A DNA stretch of 64,000 nucleotides. Source: Candidatus Rifleibacterium sp. GTDB taxonomy: Bacteria; Muiribacteriota; Ozemobacteria; Ozemobacterales; Ozemobacteraceae. Made by a program: the position numbers and the translations under genes. Of this stretch, positions 10,056 to 13,043 are shown in pieces. The DNA is taken from the NCBI GenBank assembly GCA_035352635.1, contig DAOPYA010000006.1:3742-67741 (forward strand), in the 5' to 3' direction. Each line of letters opens with the position of its first letter. Within the stretch, counting starts at the first letter, position 1. The notes under the pieces were generated by a model that had not been told where the DNA came from, searched no databases, and was given only the letters and a program-made list of their open reading frames with translations.

Positions 10056-13043
10056 ATGAAAAAACCGTTCTGGTCGTGTTGTGCTATGCTCGTCTTTTTG
10101 CTTTTATTGCTCTGCTCGCCGGTCAAAGCAGCCGAGCCTGAGCTTGGGGCCAGACTGCTTTTTTACCCCATCGGCAGTGATGCCCATTTTCTCGTAAAAG
10201 CCGTTAAGAGGTCTGATACCGATAGTTCATGGTTTTATTACCGTAACCAGGCTGTTTCAATCATAGAACCCCGGCCTGGCGAATGGGTTTCTTCTTTTAT
10301 AAACACAATCTGGGAAGAAAACCAGGTAACCCATGAAATTTTCGCCTGGGGCAAGCTTTCTGGCAATTCTGAAGATTTCGCAGGGCGCTTGCAGGCCTTT
10401 ACCGGCAAAGAACCGGTTGGCATTGCTTTCAATAAAATCGAGAAAAGCCCTCTGGCTCGTCTGGTTTGCGCGGGCGCCGAAAGCGGCAAAGCGCTGAGTG
10501 GTATCCCCGCCTACAAAAAATGGGCAAAAGTCAGCGACGGCGAATTACAGCACTGGGAAGCACTTTTCCAACATCTTGCCTCGCTGAACCGGCAGCGCAA
10601 TGTTCGGGGCGAGAATCTCGATCTATACAGTGTTTTTACCGGCATCAGCGCTATCCGTGAAACCCTGCAGATCGATGTCGATCTCGCCAATGAGAATCCG
10701 GTTCTTGATCGGGCCTGTAACGCCAACCTGCGCATTATTCAGAGTGCGGTCGAAATGTACAACATGGACCACTCGACCATGATGCAAACTCTTGATCTGC
10801 AGGCTCTCGTCGAAGGTGGCTACCTGAAAAGCAAACCGACATGCCGGTCCGGTCGTGAATATTATGGCAAGAACCTGGGGTCTGATGGCATGATTCGCTG
10901 CCCGGCTCACGGCGATATCAATAACCCGCGCCCTGATGATGGTCTGGTTGTCGATAATACAGCGAGAGTCAAAGTAGCTGGGCTGGAAGGCCCTAAAGCG
11001 CCATCGCACCCCTGGCGCAAAATGATCAAAAACCCCAATCTGGTTTTGCCCGAAGTCTATCGTCTGATACCGTCTGACTGCGCGTTTATTCATTTTCCTT
11101 CTTACAGCTCGTTTCGCAAGGCTTTTGACTTTTTTGCCGACTGGGCATCGGCTCTGGGCACCATGGCTGGCGGCGATTCGGGCAGTTCAAATTTCGGTCT
11201 TGAGAAGCGCATCAAAGACCAGTTGTTGCTCAAAACCGACATGCTGACCAGACTATTTGCAGACCTGGCGCTCAGTGATATTGTTTTTGTCTGTGAAGAC
11301 CCGTTTATCTTTGAAGGCAGCGCAGTGGCGGTAGTGCTTAAAATAACCAACGAAACAATGTTGCGCGAGAAGCTTGCAATGACCGCCAACGAATTTCGCA
11401 GCGAAAACCCTGCGATCAGCGAGAATACGCTGATGATGGGTGGCAGAAAGGTGCAGGCCTTCACCTCGCCTGATTTCCGCTATCGTTCTTATCGCCTGCT
11501 TGCCGATGGGCACCAGATCATCTCCAATTCGCCCCTGTTAATGGAAAAATTCATTTCGGTGCTTGACGGCAAGACCCCGGCGCTTACAGAGTTTCTTGAT
11601 CTGCATTATTTTTATGAACATATCGAGAAGAATTTTAAGCAACCGGGTCGCATTTTCAGCTTTCTTTCTGATGCCTTTATCAGAAAAATCATCGGGCCTG
11701 CCTGCAAAATCGCCACCAGACGCCGACTCGAATGCATTCGCCAGTCACTGCTGCAGACCCATGAATTGATGGTGAATGATGGCAAACTCGACGAGACCCT
11801 TACCTGCCCCGAGGGTGGCGTCTACGAGGTTGTAGATGGCGAAATCAGTTGCACGGTGCATCGGGTTTTTGGGCGAATGACGCCGGTAAGCGAAAGACTT
11901 CCGGTTGAAGCGACCCCTGAAGAAGCCAGCAGCTATGCAACTTTCGTTGCCCAATACAATCAGTATTTTTCGCAATTTTTTGACCCGATCGGTTTTGTAT
12001 TTTCAACTGAACCCGAATTCACCGGGCGACTTCTAATTATGCCGCTGGTTGAAAACGGCATTTACAGCGAATTGCAAAAAAATGTCCGCCATGAGCCGAT
12101 GAATGCCGGCCCGCAACCGCAGAACGGCATTCTCAAGGTCGGTGTGAATCTTCAAGCCGCTAATCTGCCGGTGCCCGGTTACTGGCTCAGTAACATCGCT
12201 TATCAGAAACGTCTTGAACTCGTCGGCCGCTGGTTCACTGGTTGTGTCTGGGCACATCTTGCTGACCACCCCCTGTTGTTCCACTGGGATTCAAACCTGC
12301 TGGCGCGTGGTATTCTCGGTGCTTTCAGCGGCGGGCGAACTGGTATGATGGGGTTATCACCGGCAATACTCAGCTTTTTTTCGCCGGTGCTTTTCGCGAT
12401 CGAGCTGACCGATGAGTCGCATTTTGACTCTATAATTGACTGGGTTCGCAACGAAATCGCGGGCAGCATCAACAATTCTGGCTTCATGGGGCCGGCATTC
12501 AAGCTCGATCAGCTCGAAGAGAATGGCGTCAAAATGTATGTGTTCTCGTTTGAACTTTTTGCGATCAGAAAAACCTATTACCTGACGCTTCGTGATGGTT
12601 TTTTTCTGGTGGCCAGCAAAAAAGAACTGCTCTTCAATCTTGAAGAAGCGCCTGCTTATGAAAAAAATGCCTTTTCAGGCAATTTCAACCTCGTCTTTTA
12701 CCCGGCGAAAATAAGACTGATGCGCCCTGATCTTCTCGAAGTGCGTGCCCGTTCGCAACGCGAAACCTGCCTCGAAAACCTTAAAAACCTGCATTTCGTC
12801 TCGACCTTTCACCCAGACCAGACCGAAAAATTTTATCAGATTGTTTACGCTGCGCAACCGGTCTGCCCGGCCGGCGGCACTTATTCAAGCGTCATGCCGG
12901 TTTCCTGCTCTCAACATGGCACAATTTCGGGAGGCGTGCTCAAGCCGGTTTCTGACTTTTTCAAAGGGGTTGGCGCCATCTCGATTCAGAGTTTCATCGA
13001 CTCCGAAGGCTTTCAGAGTGAGGTTAGATTTTTCCCCGAGTAA
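10056..13043 (+). CDS. Large secreted protein (signal peptide) containing an internal pseudopilin (GspG-like) domain
   Basis: Cleavable signal peptide [28 protein letters not shown]. Internal segment [36 protein letters not shown]..C..HG matches the post-helix region of T2SS GspG/type IV pilins and the C-terminal domain of 37740-40205. Confidence 0.7.
   Translation: [995 protein letters not shown]

Follow-up and report, generated by a model that had tools for sequence, protein, structure and literature searches.

Type IV pilins are normally defined by an N-terminal helix and a class III signal peptide, through which they are also believed to act, and the known route to additional functions is the grafting of other modules onto the pilin. 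In modular pilins, an N-terminal pilin module (IPR012902) is followed by one or more non-pilin modules, as in Streptococcus sanguinis PilB, which is composed of a pilin module and a vWA module (Raynaud et al. 2021, bioRxiv 10.1101/2021.01.27.428410 / PMC8179133). Here, we analyzed a stretch of 64,000 nucleotides from a Candidatus Rifleibacterium sp. (contig DAOPYA010000006.1), referred to below as the window, in which a 995-amino-acid (aa) exported protein and a second protein, with VIT and VWA domains, are the inverse of modular pilins, with the pilin head being the passenger and not the carrier. The head of the 995-aa protein (head 1) is a complete type IV pilin head, comprising the C-terminal half of the N-helix (α1C), a loop with a short helix and a small β-hairpin. 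We consider it about 80% probable that this is a pilin-derived head within a non-pilin exported protein, and that it forms part of a lineage-specific expansion. The features of this gene needed for the argument are:

10056 to 13043, forward strand: open reading frame (ORF) of 995 aa, taken from the ORF list; an exported, Riflebacteria-specific protein with an uncharacterized scaffold.
10056 to 10130, forward strand: predicted Sec-type signal peptide, aa 1–25, with a basic n-region, a hydrophobic core and a V-K-A motif.
10695 to 10931, forward strand: head 1, aa 214–292, an intact pilin head with α1C helix, loop and β-hairpin, containing C221, C263, C282 and H285.

As in PilB, pilin and vWA modules are combined by domain grafting in one exported protein in the case of the VIT-VWA protein. 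Unlike in modular pilins, the head is either internal (995-aa protein) or C-terminal to the VIT-VWA region, the signal peptide is of the Sec type, and the hydrophobic N-terminal half of the helix (α1N) is missing or vestigial. IPR012902/PF07963 is absent from both proteins, for which the Pfam scan returned no PF07963 match, and neither of them falls under the definition of a modular pilin. The same head, at 45–62% identity, is found in short prepilins of the Riflebacteria (P0068, P0028, P0033 and the one encoded at 34205–34588 of the window), the common motifs being the helix C.aN.RvI.gAvEMYNMD, L..GkYLKs.P, a Cys and C..HG. In contrast to these prepilins, the 995-aa protein lacks the leader with the G↓FTLIE motif and the ~21-residue α1N, and its head lies 213 aa inside the chain.

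More distant parallels are found in other type IV filament systems. GspG, which is the main pseudopilin in type II secretion systems (T2SS), binds calcium in a C-terminal loop, and in the heads this region is occupied by the Cys/His motif. The GspG/EpsG/PulG proteins (3gn9, 3fu1, 1t92, 5o2y) gave the best sequence matches in the PDB; in contrast to them, the 995-aa protein is not a pilin, and the Pfam T2SSG family (PF08334) did not match the window proteins at E<=1. Clostridioides difficile PilJ (4ixj; PilJ_Pilin, PF22473), which has two pilin folds in one chain, has the motif 'Y....P.C..GG.YS' in common with heads of the CPxGGxY type and was the top Foldseek match of our domain model. The similarity is marginal (E=0.036, the sole match when a CPxGGxY-type head was searched against the PDB) and, unlike the 995-aa protein, PilJ carries a class III signal peptide and is incorporated into pili as a true pilin. 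ComGC, the major competence pilin of Bacilli, has a purely helical head (PMC7212644), whereas the model of head 1 contains a β-hairpin. The Pfam family recorded on homologues of the 995-aa protein is named ComGC_C, and the NCBIfam model pilin_ComGC (NF040999) matched both window proteins weakly (E ~7e-4), with 19.8 bits for the 995-aa protein and 19.6 bits for the VIT-VWA protein, far below its 75-bit cut-off.

The original prediction had placed a pseudopilin-like domain at 10686–10940 of the window and a paralogous copy of it in the VIT-VWA protein. The first segment, on the forward strand, is in frame, corresponds to aa ~211–295 of the 995-aa ORF and encodes the peptide quoted in that prediction. 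Both segments do align: BLASTP with composition-based statistics yielded 35% identity over 127 columns between aa 218–326 of the 995-aa protein and aa 670–795 of the VIT-VWA protein (E=1e-13), and a Smith–Waterman alignment of the two heads alone scored 133, compared to 24.5 ± 4.5 for 2000 shuffles (maximum 49), i.e., about 24 standard deviations (SD) above the mean. The similarity therefore survived correction for composition.

The link to pilins was equally evident at the level of profiles. A head-only profile (A2) compared with 5.8 billion proteins retrieved 264 matches, the best of which were prepilins of 112–125 aa with both PF07963 (N_methyl) and PF26697, with E-values down to ~1e-25 and identities of 45–51%; several of them bear the name prepilin, ComGC or GspG in their source annotation. 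These sequences are classical, with an MKRRG↓ leader start and a head ending in ...C.Y...G.I.C.IHG. A profile derived from 81 prepilins with the G↓FTLIE motif scored 81 bits on the 995-aa window protein, and hhalign of the head from the 995-aa family against a prepilin-dominated head alignment gave a probability of 100% (E=5e-38). Precomputed PF26697 (ComGC_C) matches are recorded on P0001, a protein from a JGI metagenome contig that is 100% identical to the 995-aa protein, and on most orthologues, and the short prepilins that are 45–51% identical to head 1 carry PF26697 without any flag. The proposed identity of the segment as a pilin domain is thus supported by both profile comparisons and by its identity to prepilins. 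That the resemblance arose by chance or composition, from a Cys-rich motif combined with an amphipathic helix and without pilin homology, could be argued from the shortness of the domain (~80 aa) and from the weakness of individual PDB sequence and fold matches, but this explanation is effectively refuted by the BLASTP, shuffling, profile and hhalign results and by an identity that spans the whole helix, loop and hairpin, beyond the Cys residues alone, which leaves it a negligible probability.

With regard to the fold, the AlphaFold2 (AF2) domain model of head 1, built from an alignment of 122 sequences, reached a predicted local distance difference test (pLDDT) score of 85 and comprised a 20-residue helix (10–29), a short helix and a β-hairpin. 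Three of the top four Foldseek matches of this model were pilins (PilJ, PulG and PilA1; TM-score 0.41–0.54, with 0.54 for PulG), none of them significant (E >=0.5), so the fold prediction went in the anticipated direction without reaching significance. The resemblance to GspG was likewise real but weak: in the PDB sequence search with the head-only profile, EpsG/GspG were the best matches (E=0.025–0.3), and the core motifs align, with A.EMY..D paired with ALDMYKLDN and GGYLKS.P with GGYIKRLPKDPWG. Pilin homology therefore rests on sequence, with fold evidence that is consistent but weak.

The carrier of head 1 lacks the N-terminal features that define a pilin. Its leader consists of MKK, a hydrophobic core and then VKA↓AEP, with a maximum 15-aa Kyte–Doolittle (KD) mean of 2.69, and an N-terminal hydrophobic segment is common to all homologues; the classical signal peptide of the original prediction was thus borne out as a Sec-type leader, with its cleavage being deduced from the sequence. 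A lipoprotein reading of the leader (LLLC) was rejected, as the Cys is not conserved among homologues. The 40 residues preceding the first Cys of head 1 are polar, with a maximum 15-aa KD mean of 0.85 compared to 3.28 in the true prepilin of the window, so no hydrophobic α1N (~21 residues) directly precedes the head, just as had been predicted. Neither the Pfam scan nor a six-frame regular-expression search detected a G↓FTLIE class III motif in the 995-aa protein, and the latter search returned a single class III motif in the whole window, at 34543, within the prepilin at 34205–34588. Judged from its Sec-type leader and from the lack of a class III motif, of Glu5 and of a hydrophobic α1N, the 995-aa protein cannot be a pilin. 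The idea of a prepilin with a giant leader was also discarded, given that an internal class III motif before the heads occurred in none of 277 retrieved proteins.

The 995-aa protein is Sec-exported and has so far been found only in Candidatus Riflebacteria and closely related metagenome-assembled genomes (MAGs). Its homologues comprise 22 full-length proteins with 37–100% identity, and all the named ones are hypothetical proteins of Candidatus Riflebacteria. In distant homologues the head is not at this position. The spacing between the flanking motifs 'AIxExLQ' and 'GxxxxSHP' is 95 residues in the 995-aa protein and 12–25 residues, without a head, in P0024 and P0200; P0024 is 22% identical to the 995-aa protein and has no head at the head-1 position, and P0200, also headless at that position, has an intact head at aa 80–153 instead. 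Furthermore, in the full-length AF2 model the linkers on either side of head 1 (aa 213–216 and 298–300) had pLDDT values <50. Because the flanking motifs are joined without a head in P0024 and P0200, and because the linkers are of low confidence, head 1 is, on sequence comparison, an insertion of ~83 aa that is absent from distant homologues. The 156-aa ORF that runs antisense to the head-coding segment (window 10623–11093, reverse strand) can almost certainly be regarded as a mere shadow of the 995-aa gene.

The window contains two further carriers of the head, one of them a true prepilin. Their features are:

37740 to 40280, reverse strand: VIT-VWA protein, ORF of 846 aa (Pfam VIT 8e-23, VWA 1e-23), followed by the head and a C-terminal membrane anchor.
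38025 to 38297, reverse strand: pilin head of the VIT-VWA protein, aa 662–752, first Cys C673 (head hidden Markov model (HMM) E=9e-15).
38298 to 38348, reverse strand: vestigial α1N fragment, aa 645–661, directly before the VIT-VWA head and resembling the end of a prepilin N-helix.
34205 to 34588, reverse strand: bona fide prepilin (PF07963 N_methyl E=1.5e-9, above cut-off; head-1 HMM E=5e-9).

The VIT-VWA copy was located by a six-frame motif scan of the window. Its real start is probably M26 (nucleotide 40205; MKNFILSIIIIVMLFAGLSAADA) and not the listed upstream ATG, since M26 gives a typical signal peptide and fits the start of P0025, an orthologue with the same architecture that also carries PF26697. 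The head had been described as the C-terminal domain of this protein; the segment is present, but it is not at the extreme C-terminus, since a linker of ~45 aa and a hydrophobic C-terminal anchor of one or two segments come after it. A full hydrophobic α1N is not found before this head either: the vestige reaches a KD mean of 1.81, as opposed to 3.28 in the true prepilin, and roughly half of the helix is missing from it, as are G↓F and Glu5. A 342-aa ORF without a Pfam family (window 36702–37730, reverse strand) begins 9 nucleotides after the VIT-VWA gene, with which it is possibly co-transcribed; it has hydrophobic segments and a long, charged C-terminal part that is probably a coiled coil. 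The window prepilin has a 16-aa basic leader, the G↓ motif and a head of the form C...CPCAGRYW...C...HG, and its Smith–Waterman score against head 1 was 80, compared to 23.6 ± 4.2 for shuffles. A 425-aa ankyrin-repeat gene (32924–34201, reverse strand; Ank_2 2e-31) lies 3 nucleotides downstream of the prepilin gene, and the two look like an operon.

The closest prepilin to head 1 was P0068 (49%), that of the VIT-VWA head was the group of P0028, P0031 and P0033 (60–62%), whereas identity between the two heads is 41%. Their middle Cys is also placed differently ('P.C..G..Y' versus 'P....C.Y'). Because each of them has its nearest relatives in a separate prepilin subfamily and is less similar to its counterpart, the two non-pilin heads of the window probably represent independent recruitments from the pilin pool and not duplicates of one exapted copy, as judged by these identities. 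The original prediction of two paralogous copies in the window therefore stands in that both are real, but there are three carrier genes, the third being the prepilin, and two separate recruitments are likelier.

When 1.84 billion cluster representatives were searched exhaustively with a profile, 1,875 of them matched at E<=1e-3, of which 567 did so at E<=1e-10. One genome of each GTDB species was also scanned with alignment A5 and the heptapeptide pattern AVEMYNM; 150 loci were confirmed, nearly all in MAGs of Riflebacteria/Rifleibacteriota/Ozemobacteraceae, with at least 9 in one genome. The expansion is phylum-wide, and its named sources are almost all Riflebacteria. The class III motif was present in 10 of the 93 head-bearing ORFs of the AVEMYNM loci, a sample biased towards the query, and was absent from all 132 representatives that the cluster search had newly added. 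N-terminal signals or anchors are frequent among the head carriers, some of which are anchored at the C-terminus as well. Among the fetched proteins, 73 of 277 carry two to four heads. The architectures include:

Sel1 repeats with four heads: P0023.
Zinc ribbon, transmembrane segment and head: P0057.
Transmembrane segment, head and transmembrane segment: P0051, P0061, P0140.
Head and SH3 domain: P0157.
Very large polytopic membrane proteins (1853–1854 aa) with a single head near aa 770: P0218, P0242.
Signal peptide and two to three heads between uncharacterized domains, with a vestigial pilin helix before the last head: P0148/P0149/P0158 (528–614 aa); the middle head of P0149 matches Pfam PilJ_Pilin.

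Taken together, pilin heads have probably been lifted repeatedly from prepilin genes, in a lineage-specific manner, and joined to or placed within exported proteins of other kinds, namely VIT-VWA proteins, Sel1-repeat proteins, doubly membrane-anchored forms and proteins with two to four heads. The direction could in principle be the reverse, with a generic small metal-binding extracytoplasmic domain existing first and later being captured as a head by the pilins of Riflebacteria, and prepilins do indeed not outnumber the non-pilin carriers in the retrieved loci and representatives. Nevertheless, this is very improbable: the homologous region includes α1C, which is continuous with α1N in pilins, the core motifs are also found in GspG and PilJ of unrelated phyla, the retrieved non-pilin contexts come almost exclusively from one phylum, and the truncated α1N vestiges ('IAAIAIPNF') of several non-pilin carriers fit only leftovers of pilin genes. 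In P0197, P0148, P0158 and P0201, such vestiges, of the AAMAIPNF or AAIAVPNF type, follow a long exported N-terminal domain. These α1N vestiges in non-pilin carriers therefore point to pilin genes as the source.

A second property common to the heads is their Cys/His pattern. The Cys and His residues of head 1 are invariant across 14 homologues, and an alignment of 122 sequences shows no variation at the Cys of the helix, at the last Cys or at the His three residues further on. In a set of 362 heads, CxxH was present in 360, exactly three Cys residues in 246 and four in 80. We consider it rather likely from this conservation that C...C...CxxH constitutes a Cys3-His metal site, in which the metal would probably be zinc. 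The putative site would consist of one Cys where the helix starts, one where the hairpin starts and the C-x-x-H at the hairpin end, and would pin the fold. PilJ, in which the middle motif is also present, is reported to contain a structural zinc. The conserved Cys residues might instead form disulfides, similar to the D-region disulfide of type IVa pilins; disulfides are the usual stabilizer of exported pilin heads, and the heads with four Cys residues would accommodate them. An odd number of Cys residues in most heads, together with the nearly universal His, however, fits a Cys3-His site better, and Riflebacteria MAGs come largely from anoxic habitats, in which periplasmic disulfides are in general less dependable, so that we regard disulfides as unlikely.

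In addition to head 1, two segments of the 995-aa protein carry the signature C...CPxGGxY...CxxH, and all their Cys and His residues are invariant in the 14 homologues:

11721 to 11873, forward strand: relic 2, aa ~556–606, a degenerate pilin-head remnant with C560, C584, C599 and H602.
12756 to 12929, forward strand: relic 3, aa ~901–958, a degenerate pilin-head remnant with C905, C937, C951 and H954.

Against the pilin-head profile, hhalign assigned relic 2 a probability of 93.5%, restricted to the C-terminal half, and relic 3 one of 95.3%, with 59 aligned columns that take in the helix Cys (its segment paired with KACYSNMRVI). In the AF2 model, relic 2 is composed of a long helix (548–573) and a hairpin (590–599). 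In P0200 and P0210, two distantly related paralogues (25% identity), the relic-2 position covers nearly the whole head profile (10–85 and 4–84 of 98), with the pattern RRLQCVSSLRVLQNAV...CPDGGSY...CSIHG, and the site reads GPVWKIERQRRLQCVSSLRVLQNAV...YLHCPDGGSY...CSIHG. In the Cys-free P0024, all four ligands of relics 2 and 3 have been lost together, which speaks for the putative metal site. Relics 2 and 3 are therefore probably older, degenerate pilin heads, which would bring the 995-aa protein to up to three heads. The first Cys residues of the three are 339 and 345 aa apart, and a triplicated unit of body and head was considered; hhalign between the three bodies gave probabilities <1%, and the idea was rejected.

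Several observations weigh against the interpretation of a pilin-derived head in a non-pilin exported protein. The PF26697 matches are flagged as weak or faint on two orthologues, and the fold-search matches of the predicted domain structure are not statistically significant (best E=0.53, TM-score 0.49–0.54). For the relics, the hhalign probabilities of 93–95% partly reflect the Cys motif itself, and HMMER alone gave E-values of ~1e-3 to 1. Disulfides or another metal may take the place of the predicted Cys3-His zinc. The scaffold of the 995-aa protein has no Pfam family (Pfam scan with a library without the PF26697 model), no significant match in a Foldseek search of the full-length AF2 model (pLDDT 76.6) against the PDB, and no conserved operon.

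Regarding the genomic context, the 995-aa gene looks monocistronic. Upstream of it are a MATE-type transporter gene (8479–9858, as judged from its sequence) and two HAMP-cyclase genes (1964–7922, reverse strand), which are arranged in tandem, overlap and encode proteins of 967 and 1022 aa, each combining a HAMP and an adenylate/guanylate cyclase domain with a large region at the N-terminus. Downstream are genes for MltA, on the opposite strand, and endonuclease I (13289–15713), both of which are syntenic at some orthologous loci (L081, 11918–13030; L083, 11240–12142). The proximity of an extracellular nuclease to ComGC-like pilin sequences might be a sign of DNA uptake or degradation. In L001, a complete 5.2-Mb Riflebacteria genome, three genes encoding 135-aa proteins surround the orthologue (9369–9776, 14882–15289 and 17010–17417); the one protein inspected has a signal peptide, is extremely Lys-rich and contains several Cys residues.

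No pilus machinery was found near the 995-aa gene in the window or at the orthologous loci L001, L081 and L082. At L083, a gene encoding a 902-aa protein with HEAT repeats and a T2SSE-family ATPase domain (5179–7887) lies directly upstream of the orthologue and beside an island with phage-integrase, Gp49 and helix-turn-helix genes, an arrangement not seen in the window or at the three other loci. An operon link to pilus machinery was hence rejected as a conserved feature, L083 being the only locus with the ATPase gene, next to the integrase island.

Without a class III motif and α1N, processing and filament assembly of the 995-aa protein are predicted to be impossible. Head 1 would thus escape the prepilin peptidase and filament polymerization, and would presumably behave as an autonomous extracytoplasmic module. 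We tentatively suggest, from its sequence features, that it could be a rigid structural or protein-binding unit stabilized by a metal. The heads might, on the other hand, be pilin mimics whose head-head contacts dock the 995-aa, VIT-VWA and similar proteins to type IV filaments or to the platform on which these are assembled, which would make the proteins pilus accessories. Heads that stay 45–62% identical to co-resident prepilins, VWA modules that are pilus-presented adhesins in modular pilins (bioRxiv 10.1101/2021.01.27.428410) and the ATPase gene adjoining the orthologue at L083 speak for such mimicry, but conserved linkage to pilus genes is lacking in the window, L001, L081 and L082, and the main interface of type IV filaments is α1N, which is missing here; we therefore regard it as decidedly unlikely. 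Going further, and as a long shot, the heads of Riflebacteria could be a general docking tag for Sec-exported cargo, such as the 995-aa scaffold, VIT-VWA adhesins, Sel1 proteins and multi-head proteins, on filament sides, the tip or the assembly platform, or soluble decoys for pilus-binding phages. If the docking tag were true, helix-less heads would decorate filaments without polymerization; either role, docking tag or phage decoy, would amount to a new way to functionalize type IV filaments.

Our literature search found no paper on pilin heads reused in non-pilin proteins, and the domain itself is already modelled in Pfam; what we describe is a new architectural variant of an already known domain. 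For annotation, ComGC_C, pilin_ComGC or "GspG-like" matches in these genomes do not imply a pilin. The grafting of modules onto a pilin is reversed here at large scale, with the head alone having been inserted into, or attached to, exported proteins that are not pilins, often in multiple copies and apparently in one candidate phylum. It provides a clear natural example of a filament subunit that was exapted as a free-standing domain, and the minimal pilin head, probably stabilized by a Cys3-His site, could serve structural work.

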